Assembly (NCBI GenBank): GCA_947258985.1
Contig: CAMYKI010000003.1
Coordinates: 24,222 to 88,221, forward strand
DNA from: an uncultured Acidimicrobiaceae bacterium
GTDB lineage: Bacteria; Actinomycetota; Acidimicrobiia; Spongiisociales; UBA5794
Direction of reading: 5' to 3'
Length of the DNA: 64,000 nucleotides
In this document: in pieces, positions 3,138 to 44,574 of the stretch
How the letters are laid out: each line of letters opens with the position of its first letter
Position numbering within the stretch: the stretch's first letter is position 1
The notes under the pieces: generated by a model
Seen by the model: only the letters and a program-made list of their open reading frames with translations
Databases searched by the model: none
Told to the model about the DNA's origin: nothing
Translations under genes and position numbers: made by a program

Positions 3138-3213
3138 GCCGGGGTAGCTCAGTCGGTAGAGCGACGCACTCGTAATGCGTAGGTCACGGGTTCGATTCCC
3201 GTCTCCGGCTCCA
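3138..3213 (+). tRNA. tRNA-Thr (anticodon CGT)
   Basis: Cloverleaf read by eye. Acceptor GCCGGGG pairs with CTCCGGC with one G-U. D arm GCTC...GAGC. Anticodon stem ACGCA/TGCGT with loop CTCGTAA, giving anticodon CGT. T arm ACGGG-TTCGATT-CCCGT. Discriminator T, then CCA. Confidence 0.85.
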
Positions 3214-33871: not shown

Positions 33872-34720
33872 TTAGCCGTTGGGCGTGCCCCAGAACTTGA
33901 TCTCAGCTAGCGCCAACTCTTCGAACGCCGGTTGATCACCGATCGCCGATGACGGGAAGTTGCTCAGCACCTCGATGGTGAGCGTCGTTGTGTCGATGCT
34001 GGCGATGTCAATCCGCTGCGGACCTCCGGCGAGATCCTTCAACGTGTTGCGATTCTCCACACCGGGCAGATCGTCGACGGTGATCTTGTAGCCCTGAATC
34101 CGATAGTTCCGCAGGAAGCGATCTTGCTCGGCGATGTTGTAGACCTCGATGTAGCGGATGCTCACCGGTTGGGCGAAACGGAATTCCAGCACAAGTGGCG
34201 ACGTCGCCTGGTTCACCTGCCACTCGGAGTCGAGGTCATCGTCGATGAGGTTGGCTGTACCAAAACCGTCCGACAGTTGTGGCCCGCTGACCTGGGTCGG
34301 GGTGATCTGGGTGGTGTCGGCGATCGTTGTCGTGGTTGTTTCGACGGTCGTTGTGGTCTCTGCGGCTTCGTCGCCGCCACGGAAGACGTTCACGAGAAGG
34401 GCGACGAGAGCCACGATGAGCACGGCCGCGGCGAGGACGCTCAGAGCCCTTCCTCCCGGCGTTGAACGCACCATTGGCGCCGGTGCTACGGGCAGCGGTT
34501 CCTTCGTGAGGCGGGCCCCGCACTGTTCGCAATGCCGGTTGTAGGAGGGGTTGTACGCACCGCACGAGGGACAGGGAACCTGTTCGACAGGAGCTGCTGG
34601 AGGTTCCTCCGCTTCCGCCTCGGGGGCGGGTGGGGGCGGCTCGGTTCCCGGTGGCGGCGGTCCGTCCTCGAGTTCGAACGGCTCGAACAGATCGTCAAAT
34701 GGGTCCTTGTCTTTCGCCAC
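33872..34720 (-). CDS. membrane protein with N-terminal zinc-ribbon, single TM and C-terminal discoidin (F5/8 type C)-like domain
   Basis: CPSCGAYNPSYNRHCEQCG zinc ribbon, a Pro-rich acidic N-terminus, a TM helix (LSVLAAAVLIVALVALLV), a Thr-rich linker, and a C-terminal roughly 150-aa galactose-binding-like domain. GTG at 34720 with GGAGAC Shine-Dalgarno. The ORF track extends further to an unlikely upstream ATG. Confidence 0.55.
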   Translation of the reverse strand: MAKDKDPFDDLFEPFELEDGPPPPGTEPPPPAPEAEAEEPPAAPVEQVPCPSCGAYNPSYNRHCEQCGARLTKEPLPVAPAPMVRSTPGGRALSVLAAAVLIVALVALLVNVFRGGDEAAETTTTVETTTTTIADTTQITPTQVSGPQLSDGFGTANLIDDDLDSEWQVNQATSPLVLEFRFAQPVSIRYIEVYNIAEQDRFLRNYRIQGYKITVDDLPGVENRNTLKDLAGGPQRIDIASIDTTTLTIEVLSNFPSSAIGDQPAFEELALAEIKFWGTPNG

Positions 34721-34939
34721 GTCAGGTCTCCGTCGTTCAGTCCGCCCAAGGGCTATTGTGCCACGGATGGTTGTGATTAGCGCGTTACGTGAGACTGAAG
34801 CCTGGTCGGCGGCAAGTGTGGTGCTCGGATTGCTGCTGCTTGCGCTCCTCATAGGGTTCATCGTGGTGCGAGTGCGTCGCTTCCTCCGGGACCCCTGAGC
34901 CCTTCAGAATCTGTCGTACCCGGGCCATAGGCTGCCGGC

Positions 34940-36283
34940 ATGACAAGCACATCTTTCCAACGCCGACGCAACGCAGCGACGGCTTCCTTCATTTGCTCGA
35001 CCTGCGGATTCACGAGCGGCCGGTGGATGGGTTTCTGCCCCCAATGCAGATCGGTGGAGTCGCTCGATGCCTCTCGGTCAGGACCCGGGCCCAACGGGAA
35101 TGTCTCCCGATTGCTCAGCGAGGTGTCCCTTTCGGATCAAGCGCGACGACCGACCGACGTTGCCGAGTTTGATCGAGTGGTAGGTGGCGGTCTCGTCGGT
35201 GGCTCGGTCGTCCTGGTCGGAGGTGAGCCGGGTGTAGGGAAGTCAACCCTGCTGCTGCAACTGGCAGACGGTCTCGCCGCCAGAGAATCTGTGTTGCTGG
35301 CATCGGCGGAAGAATCTGCGGTCCAGGTTGCCCTGCGATCGGAGAGGCTTGGACTTTCTTCCGAGGGAGTGCACATCCTCTCAGAGGGCAGCGTCGAAAG
35401 CCTGCTCAGTCACGCGGACCAACTCAACCCGGCGCTGCTGGTGGTTGATTCCATACAGACGGTGACGACCGAAGACACCGACGGAAACGCCGGCGGGTTG
35501 GCGCAGGTGCGCGAGTCGGCAGCCAGGTTCATCGAGTACGCCAAACGAACCGGGACCGCAGTAATCCTCGTGGGCCATGTCACCAAGGACGGCTCCATCG
35601 CCGGTCCGAAGATTCTCGAGCACATGGTGGATGTCGTCCTCTATCTCGAAGGTGAGGCCGACGGCGGGCTGCGGGTGCTGCGCTCCCTGAAGAACCGATA
35701 CGGGTCGATCAACCAGGTCGGCGTCTTCACGATGGGCGAGAAGGGACTCGACGAGGTACCCGACCCGTCGGGGATTCTGGTGTCGTCGCACCGGCCGGGT
35801 GCATCGGGCACGGTCCTGTTCCCTGTGGTGGAGGGAAGGAGACCCATGCTGTGCGAAGTGCAGGCACTCGTCGTTCCTTCCTCACTGCCGCAGCCGCGCC
35901 GGAGCGTCAAGGGGTTTGATGCGGCTCGCCTCCACCAGCTGCTGGCGGTCCTGGAACGCCACGCCGGTGTGGCGCTGGGCAAGATGGATGTCCACGTGAA
36001 CGTCGTCGGAGGCATCCGATTGCGTGATCCGGCCGTCGATCTACCGGTTGCTCTCGCCATAGTCTCGTCCGTCGCGGACCAGCCGCTGCCGCTCACAGTG
36101 GCTTGGGGAGAAGTCGGATTGACCGGGGAGATTCGGAGGGCCCCCCATGGGAAGCGTCGCCGGGCGGAGGCCGATCGATTCGACCCGGAGTTGCTGATAC
36201 GGCCGGGGACGGGCGGGGTCGGCACTCTCGTTGAGGCTCTAGGTGCGGCCGGTATGCCCGCGTCGAGGCCCAGCCGGCAGTGA
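34940..36283 (+). CDS. radA: DNA repair protein RadA (Sms)
   Basis: N-terminal C4 zinc finger (CSTCGFTSGRWMGFCPQC), RecA-like Walker A GEPGVGKST, KNRYG motif, Lon-like C-domain. Confidence 0.9.
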   Translation: MTSTSFQRRRNAATASFICSTCGFTSGRWMGFCPQCRSVESLDASRSGPGPNGNVSRLLSEVSLSDQARRPTDVAEFDRVVGGGLVGGSVVLVGGEPGVGKSTLLLQLADGLAARESVLLASAEESAVQVALRSERLGLSSEGVHILSEGSVESLLSHADQLNPALLVVDSIQTVTTEDTDGNAGGLAQVRESAARFIEYAKRTGTAVILVGHVTKDGSIAGPKILEHMVDVVLYLEGEADGGLRVLRSLKNRYGSINQVGVFTMGEKGLDEVPDPSGILVSSHRPGASGTVLFPVVEGRRPMLCEVQALVVPSSLPQPRRSVKGFDAARLHQLLAVLERHAGVALGKMDVHVNVVGGIRLRDPAVDLPVALAIVSSVADQPLPLTVAWGEVGLTGEIRRAPHGKRRRAEADRFDPELLIRPGTGGVGTLVEALGAAGMPASRPSRQ

Positions 36284-36343
36284 GATTCCGCCGAGGAGTC
36301 AAGTGACACCGCACAGAGGAAGGGATCGGCTAGCCTCGCTTTG

Positions 36344-37384
36344 ATGGTTTCTCGACCTCTCGACTCCTATGACGTACTCAGGCGGTTTGCGCCGGGAACA
36401 CCCCTGCGCATCGCCGTCGAGCTGATTCACGGGCAGGGCACGGGTGCGTTGATCGTGATCGGGTCTGGTTCAATGCTCGATGCGCTGTGCAGCGGCGGGT
36501 TCTCCCTTCACGAGACCACCTTCACTGCACAACGCCTTGCCGAGTTGTCGAAGATGGATGGCGGCATTGTGGTTGACGACGAGCGTGCGTTGATCACACG
36601 GGCCAATGTCCACTTCATCCCCGATCCAACGATCGAGACCAACGAGACCGGAACCCGATTTCGCACCGCGGAGAGAATGGCTCTTCAGACGGGTAATGAT
36701 GTCCTGGCTGTCAGCGAAGAGAGCTGGCGGACCGCTGTGGTGTACCGCAACGGCCAACGTTATGAGTTGGCTCGACCGAGTGACCTGTTGGCGAGCGCCA
36801 ACAACTCCCTCAACTCACTCGAGCGTCTCCGTCGCCGCTTGCAGAGTGCCGAAGATCGTCTCACCAGGGCTGAGGTCGACGATGTGGTTTCAAGTCGTGA
36901 GGTCCTGCTCGTATTGGCACGCGCCACTCTCGTCACACGCATGTTTGCCGAGATCGAGCGGACCCTCGTGGCGCTCGGCGGCGAAGCCAATTTGATCACC
37001 ATCCAGGCAACCGACCTCATCGAGGGTGTTGATGATCTGGCGGAGAATGTGTTCGCCGACTATCGCAAGCGCAGAGGTAAGAAGTCCGTGTTCGATCGGC
37101 TCAGCGCTGTACCCACAGAAGAACTGCACGATCTTTCGGAGCTGGCCCAGATCCTGGGGTTCCCGGACGATGAAGGAATGGAGCCCCGTGGCATCCGGCT
37201 GTTGGCTCGTGTGCCCAGGCTGCCGGACTCTGTGCGCCGCAGCCTGGTCAACCACTTCCGCGGTTTCCAACGTCTACTCCATGCGAGCGTCGCCGATCTG
37301 GAGAAGGTCGAAGGCGTCGGACGTGCTCGGGCTCATCAATTGCGCCGCTTCTTCGATCGAACCATCGAAATGGGCGACGGCTAA
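36344..37384 (+). CDS. disA: DNA integrity scanning protein DisA (diadenylate cyclase)
   Basis: DAC domain with DGG (MDGGIVVD) and RHR-like ([12 protein letters not shown]) motifs. C-terminal HhH region. Conserved radA-disA pairing. Confidence 0.85.
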
Positions 37385-37474
37385 CAGGACGGCTAGTCGG
37401 GTATTCGCGCCCCGCCTACCCAATACAGATCCCCGGACAGTTACAATGCGCGCTCCAAGCAACCCGGACTGAGT

Positions 37475-38206
37475 GTGACGAACAAGAAGACCACAGCGAA
37501 GACCGCCACGAAGAAGGCACCGGCCAAAAAGGCACCGGCCAAGAAGGCTGCGGCCAAAAAGGCTCCGGCCAAGAAGGCTGCGGCCAAAAAGACTGCGGCG
37601 GCGAAGAAGGCTCCGGCCAAGAAGGCTCCGGCCAAAAAGACTGCGGCGGCGAAGAAGGCTCCGGCAGCCAAGGCTGCACCCCGCCGAGCCAAAAAGGTGC
37701 AGAGCCCGTTTTCGGTTGGCGACTACGTCGTCTATCCGCATCACGGAGCCGCAACAATTATCAAGCGCGAGCGGATCGACTTCGACGGCGAGCGGCAAGA
37801 GTATTTCGTACTCGAGATTGCCACCGATCAGCTCACTGTGCGGGTCCCGGTCGGCAAGGCCGTTGATCTCGGCGTACGTCCGGTGATTTCGCAAAACAAG
37901 GCCCGGCAGGTGTTCCGAACGTTCAAAGAAGAGCCTCAGGAAGCCGGCAAGAACTGGAGCCGCTGGTACAAGCTCCTCACCGAGAAGATCAACAGTGGCG
38001 ACATCTTCCAGGTAGCCGAAGTGGTTCGCGACCTCACCTATGCGCAGCAGGTGAAGGGGATCTCACCGGCGCTGAAGAGGATGTTGGCCAAGGCTCGGCT
38101 AATCATCATCTCAGAACTCCGTTTCGCGCTTAACCTGGACGAAGAGGAAGCGGTGAAGAGACTCGATAGGGCTCTTCCCAAAGTCGAAATGCCGGAGGAA
38201 GTGTGA
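37475..38206 (+). CDS. carD: CarD/CdnL family RNA-polymerase-binding regulator with N-terminal Lys/Ala-rich histone-H1-like extension
   Basis: The C-terminal roughly 160 aa are a CarD_CdnL_TRCF domain ([27 protein letters not shown]...). The N-terminal about 80 aa are [10 protein letters not shown] repeats. GTG start. Confidence 0.8.
37500..37690. repeat. tandem 15/45-bp repeats encoding the (P/A)AKKA motif inside carD
   Basis: Repeated gccaagaaggctccggccaaaaag(g/a)ctgcggc units are visible in the DNA. Likely to vary in length. Confidence 0.6.
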
Positions 38207-38847
38207 GCGTTCCCCCAGATGCCGCGGTATGGGGAATCGTTGTAGCCGGCGGCACCGGCCGTCGGTTCGGTAGACCCAAACACTCGATGGAACTCGGTGG
38301 ACGGCCGCTCTGGGCATGGGGACGTGACATGCTCGTCGATGCGGGCGTCAGCCATGTCGTTGTCGTGGGACCGGTGCCCGGTGGTGTCCCCGGCGGGAAC
38401 CGGCGACGCGACTCGGTTCTGGCAGGACTCTCCGAAGTTCCGGAAGAGGTCGACTATGTCGTCGTCCATGATGCGGCCCGACCCCTTGCCAAGAAAGAGA
38501 TGGTCGCCGCCCTCATCGAAACGCTTCTCACGCGGGACGTCGACGGCGTGGTCCCCGCAGTTCCGGTGCGGGACACACTCAAAGAAGTTGACGACAAGGA
38601 CGTGGTTTCCCAAACGCTGCCTCGAGATCATTGCGTTGCGGTACAGACACCCCAGGGGTTCGCCACGAAGGCACTTCGGGCAGCGCACGCCGCCATGGAA
38701 GGCAGCTATACCGACGATGCGGGCATGATCGAGGACAACGGTGGTCGGGTAGTGGTAATCCCCGGCGATCCCCGCAACCTGAAAGTGACGTTCCCCGAAG
38801 ACCTCGCCGTAGTCCGGGCGCTGGTGGCGGCCGAGGCCGCCCAGTGA
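38203..38847 (+). CDS. ispD: 2-C-methyl-D-erythritol 4-phosphate cytidylyltransferase
   Basis: GIVVAGGTGRRFG nucleotide-binding motif, the VVVHDAARP motif. GTG start. Follows carD as in mycobacteria. Confidence 0.85.
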   Translation: MSVPPDAAVWGIVVAGGTGRRFGRPKHSMELGGRPLWAWGRDMLVDAGVSHVVVVGPVPGGVPGGNRRRDSVLAGLSEVPEEVDYVVVHDAARPLAKKEMVAALIETLLTRDVDGVVPAVPVRDTLKEVDDKDVVSQTLPRDHCVAVQTPQGFATKALRAAHAAMEGSYTDDAGMIEDNGGRVVVIPGDPRNLKVTFPEDLAVVRALVAAEAAQ

Positions 38848-39311
38848 GGATCGGCTGGGGTTTTGACGCCCACCGCATAGGGCCGGACGGCCCGATGATG
38901 ATCGGCGGCGTAGTTGTGGCCGAAGACCGCGGCCTTGTGGGCACTTCAGACGCCGACGTGCTACTCCACGCAGTTGCCGACGCCATTCTGGGGGCTGCCG
39001 CTCTGGGTGATCTCGGCACCCACTTCCCATCGAGCGACGAGAAGTGGGCGAACGCGGACTCGGGCGAATTGCTGGCGCACGTCGTCGAGTTGGCCCGCGG
39101 ATCGGGTCTTCTCGTTGACAGCGTCGATGCGACTGTCATCGCGGAGAAAGTACGCATCGGGCCGCACCGGGAGTCCATCCGGACCCGGCTTGCTGAACTG
39201 CTCGACGTGCTGGTCGACCGGGTATCGGTCAAAGCCACGAGCACCGACGGGATGGGTTACATCGGGAACGACGAAGGAATCGCCGCCGTCGCGGTTGTTG
39301 TCCTCAACTGA
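38844..39311 (+). CDS. ispF: 2-C-methyl-D-erythritol 2,4-cyclodiphosphate synthase
   Basis: VRIGWGFDAHR...GHSDADVLLHA... are canonical IspF motifs. The GTG at 38844 overlaps the ispD stop. The ORF track's longer upstream extension is rejected. Confidence 0.85.
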   Translation: MRIGWGFDAHRIGPDGPMMIGGVVVAEDRGLVGTSDADVLLHAVADAILGAAALGDLGTHFPSSDEKWANADSGELLAHVVELARGSGLLVDSVDATVIAEKVRIGPHRESIRTRLAELLDVLVDRVSVKATSTDGMGYIGNDEGIAAVAVVVLN

Positions 39312-43756: not shown

Positions 43757-44507
43757 CCTCGAAGGCTTCCACGCGGTCCGGGCGGCGGTCGACGCGGGAC
43801 GCGTTACCGAAATCCTGGTTGAGCATTCGCGAGCGAAGCGGGACGACTACCGCGCTTTGCTCGAGGATGCGGCCGGGCGGGGAGCGCGGATCGACCGGGT
43901 CGACGATGTACGCGATCATGCGCGGTCGGGAGCACCGCAAGGCATCGTCGCCAAAGCGCGTCCCATTCCCTACTCGTCTCTCGATGCCGCCATCGCAGTC
44001 ACTGATCCCGCTGCGCTGCTCGTACTCGATCACCTCGAGGACCCGAGGAATGTGGGAGCTATCGCCCGGTCGATGGTGGCTGCCGGGGTTAAGGCGCTCG
44101 TGATTCCGGAGCGCCGATCTGCCCCGCTCGGACCGACCGCCTTCAAGGCAGCGGTCGGCGCTTTCGAGAAGCTGACGGTGGTACAGACGAAGTCCACCGC
44201 GGATGCGATGCGCCGGTTGCGCAAGGCGGGGGTATGGCTGGTCGGTCTCGATGCCGGCGGGAATCGTTCGCTGTTTGGTTGTGATCTGTTGGACCAACCC
44301 GTCGCCATCGTCGTTGGGGCAGAGGGCAAAGGACTATCACATCTGGCGTCGGAACTGCTCGACGTGACGGTCACGATCCCGATTGACCCGGAAGTCGAAA
44401 GCCTCAACGCATCGGTGGCGGCGTCCCTGGCATTGTTCGAAATCAGCCGCCAACGTGGCGCTACACTCGGCGCGCCTCTGCCCGACGGCAGAGACCCGCT
44501 GGCGTAG
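43731..44507 (+). CDS. rlmB: 23S rRNA (guanosine-2'-O)-methyltransferase, RlmB/TrmH (SpoU) family
   Basis: SpoU_sub_bind N-domain plus SPOUT motifs (LVLDHLEDPRNVGAIARS, IVVGAEGKGLS, IPIDPEVESLNASVAASLALFE). Start overlaps the cysS 3' end. Confidence 0.8.
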   Translation: MASAGIGDSLEGFHAVRAAVDAGRVTEILVEHSRAKRDDYRALLEDAAGRGARIDRVDDVRDHARSGAPQGIVAKARPIPYSSLDAAIAVTDPAALLVLDHLEDPRNVGAIARSMVAAGVKALVIPERRSAPLGPTAFKAAVGAFEKLTVVQTKSTADAMRRLRKAGVWLVGLDAGGNRSLFGCDLLDQPVAIVVGAEGKGLSHLASELLDVTVTIPIDPEVESLNASVAASLALFEISRQRGATLGAPLPDGRDPLA

Positions 44508-44574
44508 CTCAGTCCGGCAGAGCAGCTGATTTGTAATCAGCAGGTCATGGGTTCGAATCCCTTCGCCAGCTCCA
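44498..44574 (+). tRNA. tRNA-Thr (anticodon TGT)
   Basis: Acceptor GCTGGCG/CGCCAGC. D arm GCTC...GAGC. Anticodon stem GCTGA/TCAGC with loop TTTGTAA. T loop TTCGAAT. Discriminator T, then CCA. The 5' end overlaps the rlmB stop by 10 nt. Confidence 0.8.

Follow-up and report, generated by a model that had tools for sequence, protein, structure and literature searches.

A 64-kb window of contig CAMYKI010000003.1 was analysed; the window is the whole stretch of 64,000 nucleotides, and its host was placed among uncultured Acidimicrobiia by the names on homologs and related loci. The window encodes a CarD protein within the gene order radA-disA-carD-ispD-ispF (Table 1). A CarD/CdnL core, the module that binds RNA polymerase (RNAP), is preceded by a disordered polycationic tail. 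From comparative sequence evidence, the tail is almost certainly translated from the GTG at 37475. The protein probably represents a housekeeping CarD to which the tail adds non-specific DNA binding. The radA-disA-carD-ispD-ispF order was kept in all related loci retrieved (L003, L004 and L006 to L009 are named here) and therefore, as judged by gene order, the locus is the housekeeping carD locus.

Table 1. Coordinates of carD, its parts and its neighbours, and of two homologs with C-terminal tails. Positions refer to the window unless another locus is named.
Feature	Position	Strand	Description
radA-like gene	34940-36283		upstream of disA, within radA-disA-carD-ispD-ispF order
disA	36341..37384	+	upstream neighbour of carD; Pfam DAC and DisA-linker
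TACAAT	37442..37447	+	-10-like hexamer within AGTTACAATGCGCG, 27 nt upstream of the start codon
GGACTGAG	37466..37473	+	weak Shine-Dalgarno-like stretch upstream of the GTG start
carD, complete gene	37475..38206	+	GTG start, 243 codons and TGA stop
GTG start codon of full-length tailed CarD	37475..37477	+	earliest start codon within the open reading frame
N-terminal tail coding region	37475..37705	+	residues 1-77, predicted disordered
Tandem repeat array	37509..37665	+	encodes (P/A)AKKA units; Tandem Repeats Finder
In-frame internal GTG (V75)	37697..37699	+	rival start of a 169-aa CarD
RID	37709..37885	+	residues 79-137, PF02559; Tudor-like domain predicted to contact the RNAP beta1-lobe
CarD C-terminal helical domain	37907..38167	+	residues 145-231, PF21095; promoter-DNA-contacting
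W161 codon TGG	37955..37957	+	equals the W85 'wedge' of Mycobacterium tuberculosis CarD; gap-free alignment to 4ilu/4kbm
ispD	38203-38847	+	Pfam IspD
ispF	38844-39311	+	GTG start; Pfam YgbB
P0133	L010 2501-3247		C-terminal tail; locus disA ... carD ... ispD-ispF
P0153	L011 2501-3202		C-terminal tail; locus carD-ispDF

By all sequence and fold criteria tested, size excepted, the protein belongs to the CarD/CdnL family. Both Pfam domains exceeded their cut-offs, CarD_TRCF_RID (PF02559) with 49.2 bits (cut-off 23) and CarD_C (PF21095) with 91.9 bits (cut-off 23.1). A phmmer search against the PDB aligned the core with M. tuberculosis (Mtb) CarD without gaps (E = 8e-37), and F79 took the position of Mtb F3. 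The core is 48% identical to Mtb and Streptomyces CarD. An AlphaFold2 model built from 35 homologs had a predicted local distance difference test score (pLDDT) of ~90 or higher across residues 78-235, with the beta-strands of residues 84-125 at ~90. Foldseek superimposed the model on CarD in RNAP open complexes, 8hvr_H (TM 0.87, root mean square deviation 2.3 Å) and 6edt_M (TM 0.86, 2.2 Å), both over 155-157 columns with 48% identity. W161 (Mtb W85), R163, K166 and K201 (Mtb K125) are unchanged in 35 of 35 aligned homologs; R123, the equivalent of the beta1-lobe-binding residue Mtb R47, was present in 28 of the 35. In Mtb CarD, W85 acts as the wedge (W86 in Thermus thermophilus) and K125 contacts DNA (PMC10232725, PMC4593161). 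The core has a net charge of +1, and the protein ends 12 residues past the CarD_C domain. The exception is size. CdnL is described in the literature as a protein of 160-200 residues without a DNA-binding domain (PMC4374960). The 243 residues with a 77-residue basic extension lie outside this description. Relatives are 219-376 residues long.

The 77 residues of the tail comprise 26 lysines, 2 arginines, 30 alanines, 7 prolines and 7 threonines, with neither aspartate nor glutamate. The net charge is +28 and the isoelectric point 12. Lysine contributes 34% and alanine 39% of the residues, and 12 KK doublets are spaced by three to four A/P/T residues. In the AlphaFold2 model, residues 1-75 form a featureless coil (pLDDT ~50). 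The tail falls within the lysine-repeat definition of Strzalka et al. 2017, that is, five or more repeats of 1-3 K/R with 2-9 neutral residues between them, a K content of 10% or more and an A content of 27% or more (PMC5714199). Profile scores stayed under the curated cut-offs: Hc2 (PF07382) matched the tail with 31.8 bits (cut-off 40, E = 1.9e-7), NF038053 with 29.4 bits (cut-off 80) and NF038052 with 22.1 (cut-off 135); the E value for the H1-like Burkholderia model was 8.4e-7. The tail is outside every curated H1-like family because all scores were under the cut-offs. Its likeness to H1, Hc2 and HupB tails is compositional.

A first-pass annotation, made earlier from the letters of the window, had described a CarD/CdnL core preceded by a histone-H1-like lysine-repeat tail of about 80 residues. 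The Pfam domains RID and CarD_C and the K/A/P/T tail bear this out, and the tail measures 76-77 residues when counted from F79, aligned with Mtb F3. The annotation had also placed the tail at the end opposite to the HupB tails and to the HMGA domain of myxobacterial CarD, and it is N-terminal here. The claimed resemblance to HupB and H1 stood in composition and fell short at the family cut-offs. In six frames of the window, the CarD tail is the sole K/A/P-rich stretch. It recurs in the orthologs of thousands of relatives and is therefore not a product of chance. Databases label tailed homologs as 'CarD family transcriptional regulator' and once as 'histone H1-like repetitive region-containing protein'.

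The DNA of the tail is repetitive. Tandem Repeats Finder resolved the array into 9.7 copies of a 15-bp period (78% matches), 5.0 copies of a 30-bp period (83%) or 3.3 copies of a 48-bp period (88%). A repeat search across 37475-37669 found nine register-shifted copies at a spacing of 15 or 18 bp. The copies are 67-88% alike, and the two copies of the 48-bp unit (16 aa) alone are near-exact matches. The repeats had been announced as near-identical units of 15/45 bp; the tandem array and the 15-bp period were found, the long period is 48 bp and near-identity does not apply to the copies in general.

Tail length was compared among proteins sharing a cluster of at least 90% identity. The core length was constant at 165-166 aa. 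The tails measured 148, 183, 183, 208 and 208 aa in one cluster, 72, 72, 72, 77, 77, 77 and 89 aa in a second and 161 and 171 aa in a third. Tail length differences within the clusters were mostly multiples of 5 residues. Where the core was at least 96% identical to that of the window, tails had 77-135 residues. The hypervariable length expected from the repeats was thus observed at the level of close relatives. Slippage or recombination among the 15-bp-based repeats would alter the tail length in frame. Tail length, and plausibly DNA affinity too, may drift fast between close relatives.

Lys-Lys doublets in the tail are written as AAG-AAG or AAA-AAG; AAA-AAA and AAG-AAA are absent. Five CC-AAA-AAG runs with five A's (37524-37535, 37553-37564, 37583-37594, 37631-37642 and 37689-37699) are potential slippage sites. 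Programmed frameshifting at these five sites was considered and dropped, the other frames being without a conserved product. In the homolog P0058 (289 aa), the N-terminal part QEGGGQEACGQEG... is the AKKA repeat in another frame, followed by AAKKAPAKK... before the core. Two mutually offsetting frameshifts, or a misassembly inside the repeat, would appear to explain it.

The distribution of tails was examined by searching the core alone against 1.84 billion cluster representatives. K/A/P-rich N-terminal tails were confined to the clusters nearest to the query (P0004, P0121, P0122, P0125, P0127 and weakly P0129). Some Acidimicrobiia-like CarDs with 49-67% identity are without an N-terminal tail (P0123, P0124, L002). 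A scan of genome contigs had, among the matches listed, the tailed L001 of an Acidimicrobiia metagenome-assembled genome (MAG) and the tail-less L002. Homologs from a second search, aimed at the tail in cultured species, carry MAG names only. C-terminal K/A/P-rich tails were present in four other CarD clusters (P0133, P0153, P0166 and P0167), with 61-138 aa, 21-38% K and cores that are 40-52% identical to the core of the window. Members of the P0153 cluster differ by one 20-aa repeat block. Because the C-terminal tails of P0133 and P0153 are encoded in housekeeping-type loci (L010, L011), sequence comparison indicates that basic tails have been joined to housekeeping CarD more than once, at either end. 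Two unusual homologs were seen. P0055 (371 aa) has two tandem CarD cores (~1-165 and 208-368) with a basic linker, and P0121 (641 aa) has a 477-residue K/A/P-rich N-terminal region and two matched stretches. These double cores could be real duplications or fusions, or assembly artefacts.

Strong support for translation of the tail came from the carD N-termini of relatives, a comparison proposed in the first-pass annotation. The homologs counted were the 119 best matches with a recognisable core start, from the 120 top homologs. N-terminal tails of 53-210 aa (median 96) were found in 117 of the 119. The region just before the core is informative: in 19 of the 119, the 20 residues that precede the core are free of M, V, L and I, and 13 lack them throughout the tail. 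An ATG, GTG, TTG, CTG or ATH start near the core is impossible in these 19 homologs. Conserved (S/V/Y)PF residues lie upstream of the first core valine, and coding therefore continues upstream. Most of the 120 top homologs also share the N-terminus of the tail, [MV][TAP]xKKT.

P0125 as query retrieved a second Acidimicrobiia subclade, a more distant one. Tails were present in 115 of 119 proteins, with a median of 140 aa and a composition of 25% K, 26% A, 14% P and 4% D+E. They start with MA[QST]KK, which is related to [MV][TAP]xKKT, and are far less repetitive. As they are hardly repetitive, indels of 1-2 bp would break the frame if the region were non-coding. Codon usage in the tail of the window is close to that of the genome, with AAG as 81% of the Lys codons (84% in long genes) and a third-position GC content of 0.74 (0.75).

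The DNA upstream of the long start is conserved as well. The window, L003, L004 and L005 share the stretch AGTTACAATGCGCG without any difference, amid divergent flanking DNA. A TAnnnT hexamer precedes the tail start by 26-30 nt in L001 and L006 to L009 as well. The TACAAT hexamer is a probable carD promoter that would leave a leader of ~20 nt. A sigma-70 consensus scan of 37300-37760 found no full -35/-10 pair. An Rfam scan found no family in tail or leader, so that no known RNA element explains the region. A start downstream of the repeats, which the first-pass annotation had named as the outcome that would undo the tail, was rejected by the in-frame tails of 117 of 119 and 115 of 119 homologs, by the startless homologs and by the conservation of tail N-terminus and -10-like box.

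By analogy with other basic tails, the Acidimicrobiia tail would fairly likely give CarD a non-specific affinity for DNA. The RID would dock on the RNAP beta1-lobe, as in mycobacteria and Thermus. The C-terminal domain would bring its wedge tryptophan and basic residues to the upstream edge of the bubble, where double-stranded DNA gives way to single strands, and stabilise the open complex. The tail would bind DNA electrostatically, thereby concentrating CarD on the nucleoid, and would also contact the duplex DNA next to the promoter. Occupancy and open-complex stability may be raised beyond what the small contact of the C-terminal domain alone provides. The DNA interface of this domain is modest, ~380 Å2 (PMC4593161). 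Equivalent C-terminal tails in other lineages speak for a tether that works from any position rather than for a contact that depends on one geometry. The first-pass annotation had also considered tethering to AT-rich promoters; the analysis lends no support to a preference of the tail for AT-rich promoters or AT-rich DNA.

Precedents for such a function are known. Lysine repeats are over-represented in actinobacterial DNA-binding proteins, including TopA, HupS, Ku, FtsK and HrdB (PMC5714199). The lysine repeats of TopA stabilise the enzyme-DNA complex (PMC5714199, PMC7398561). In Myxococcus xanthus, the basic disordered domain of CarD enables it to bind DNA, is required for full activity and probably directs the protein to the nucleoid; other basic disordered domains can take its place (PMC4374960).

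Several observations count against a DNA-binding, tailed CarD made from GTG 37475. The internal GTG at 37697 is located 4 codons ahead of F79, just where a canonical CarD would begin. Gene callers picked the equivalent short start in L004 and L005 (P0112), though an in-frame tail lies upstream there. The Shine-Dalgarno (SD) duplex of the tail start (-3.2 kcal/mol) is no better than the median of ATG and GTG codons in the window (-3.8). The internal GTG pairs more weakly (-2.2 kcal/mol). These energies do not separate the two candidate starts and were therefore not used as support. A clearer GAGG(A) SD precedes the tail in L001, L006, L008 and L009 (-5.6 to -5.9). The tail starts with GTG in L003 and L004, and CTG replaces GTG in the near-identical relative L005. 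That very close relatives keep the frame is weak evidence, since repeat units of 15 bp preserve it without selection. The open frame was given no weight because none of the three forward frames of the repeat has an internal stop. In the core, the position of Mtb R25, an RNAP contact, is occupied by I101, with R/K at the adjoining position 100. Polycationic tails can bind RNA or polyphosphate, too.

The CTG of L005 (1158-1160) corresponds to the GTG of L004 (2641-2643), and the tail is in frame in both. Possible explanations of the CTG are an error in sequencing, its use as a weak start, or reliance on another start.

A translated tail may have another main role: binding of RNA or polyphosphate, an entropic spacer, a solubility bristle, turnover control or a mostly neutral low-complexity expansion tolerated by GC-rich genomes. 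The polyanion partner is not identifiable from composition alone. Length and sequence of the tail are loosely constrained (53-210 aa). PMC9239181 connects the H1-like protein AlgP with polyphosphate granule spacing in Pseudomonas. Such a role is nevertheless unlikely. Two deep Acidimicrobiia subclades have both kept the tail, nearly free of acidic residues and with its N-terminal peptide conserved, and this retention speaks for selection. The protein that bears it acts at promoter DNA, and the experimental precedents for like tails (TopA, HupB, Ku and myxobacterial CarD) all concern DNA binding.

Production of two forms, the tailed 243-aa protein from GTG 37475 and a tail-less 169-aa protein from GTG 37697, would allow their ratio to set the share of DNA-tethered CarD. 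In the window and in many close relatives (KKV[QE]SPF), an in-frame GTG coincides exactly with the boundary of the core, and with a weak SD at both starts neither is clearly preferred. The internal start is not conserved, however. Many close relatives have isoleucine at this position, and the 19 homologs described above lack any candidate start. The internal GTG is without an SD or other initiation signal, and none of the data require a second product. A dual start is accordingly quite improbable.

An extended version of the tether reading would make the tailed CarD, as the only housekeeping CarD of this large Acidimicrobiia clade, a true nucleoid-associated protein that is preloaded on DNA independently of RNAP, possibly forms condensates and globally tunes promoter opening. 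The fast-changing repeat number would be a heritable contingency setting of open-complex stability across the genome, located within an essential transcription factor. This is speculative and quite improbable. Highly improbable is an untranslated leader or otherwise non-coding repeat, with only the 169-aa CarD being made and the long reading frame an artefact of stop-free GC-rich repeats: the position of the internal GTG, the short gene calls, the weak SD and the CTG of L005, the stop-free other frames and the spurious antisense calls over the repeat fit it, but the 19 startless homologs, the (S/V/Y)PF residues, the in-frame tails of both subclades, non-repetitive ones included, the conserved N-terminal peptide and -10-like box, the gene-like codon bias, the weaker internal SD and the lack of an Rfam match oppose it, and it would stretch the disA-carD gap to 250-700 bp, instead of the 56-90 bp in window and relatives if the tail is coding.

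With the favoured reading of a tailed housekeeping CarD, the protein can be compared to known systems. It shares with Mtb and Streptomyces CarD and Myxococcus CdnL (4KBM, 6EDT, 8HVR, 2LWJ) the two-domain core of RID and helical C-terminal domain, the wedge tryptophan and basic patch (W161, R163, K166, K201) and the location near ispD-ispF and disA. It differs from these stand-alone proteins in the polycationic N-terminal extension of 77 residues, up to 210 in relatives, and in having I101 in place of Mtb R25.

Like myxobacterial CarD, it combines a CdnL-like RNAP-binding module with a disordered basic region, whose DNA binding is inferred for the Acidimicrobiia tail. In myxobacterial CarD, the basic domain is C-terminal and follows an acidic segment, with AT-hooks in M. 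xanthus; the Acidimicrobiia tail is N-terminal, has no acidic segment or RGRP motif and belongs to the CarD of the housekeeping locus. Myxobacterial CarD works with CarG at promoters of extracytoplasmic function (ECF) sigma factors, alongside a separate essential CdnL. The synteny of the window locus is of the housekeeping CarD type, unlike that of myxobacterial carD. The core matched myxobacterial CarD 2lt1 with E = 2e-4, against 1e-36 for Mtb CarD, and thus has no specific kinship with it. A histone-H1-like domain is reportedly functionally equivalent to the HMGA-like domain of M. xanthus CarD (Garcia-Heras et al. 2009, PNAS).

The tail also resembles the lysine repeats of actinobacterial TopA, HupB/HupS, Ku, FtsK and HrdB, which are degenerate K/A/P-rich H1-like repeats on proteins of DNA transactions. 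In the cases covered by the lysine-repeat papers PMC5714199 and PMC7398561, TopA, HupB/HupS and Ku, the repeats are C-terminal and known from Streptomyces and Mycobacterium, whereas those of CarD are N-terminal and from Acidimicrobiia. A text search of the two papers gave 0 matches for CarD. Hc2 (PF07382), the H1-like proteins of Burkholderia and Bordetella and AlgP likewise have AKKA/PAKKA-type tandem repeats encoded by repetitive DNA. In these, the repeats belong to stand-alone nucleoid proteins and are not appended to a factor that binds RNAP.

No description of an N-terminally tailed CarD/CdnL was found in the accessible literature searched. The survey of Bae et al. 2015 took in only CarD homologs of 120-200 residues (PMC4593161), and tailed CarDs would therefore have been missed. 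One actinobacterial CdnL of 301 aa is included in Table 1 of Garcia-Moreno 2010. N-terminally tailed CarD is a real and widespread architecture that seems to be undescribed. The two modules are known already, as is the idea of fusing them; the arrangement is new.

CarD/CdnL proteins are regarded as reaching promoters only via RNAP, with very little DNA contact of their own, and the specialised myxobacterial CarD is the one known exception. Here, a class-level group of abundant, mostly uncultured Actinobacteria bears an H1-like tail on the housekeeping CarD, and other lineages bear one at its C-terminus. This is a recurrent natural experiment on the effect that extra non-specific DNA affinity would have on open-complex stabilisation. 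Tails of 53-210 residues on a near-constant core are ready-made constructs for studying tethering and the balance between activation and repression by CarD.

The tail also matters for annotation, as gene callers sometimes omit it or call spurious antisense open reading frames (ORFs) over it. Stop-free antisense ORFs across the repeat are located in the window at 37274-37894 (-), 37416-37757 (-) and 37441-37692 (-), with counterparts in L003 2985-3389 (-), L004 2490-2996 (-) and L005 1007-1501 (-). In public assemblies, such ORFs are annotated as genes (134-168 aa, without a Pfam match), at times replacing the tail. These gene calls are an annotation artefact caused by the repeats.

Downstream of carD, the genes are tightly packed. 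The carD stop and the ispD start overlap in GTGA (38203-38206), and ispD and ispF have the same 4-nt overlap (38844-38847). These overlaps suggest translational coupling and a single operon of carD and the two isoprenoid genes. Elsewhere in the 64-kb window, two tRNA genes at 3138-3210 (+) and 44498-44571 (+) were the only features to reach an Rfam gathering score. A 329-aa ORF at 33872-34861 (-), upstream of the radA-like gene, had a marginal APC10/DOC match (PF03256, 23.3 bits; cut-off 21), a domain that is unusual for a bacterium.

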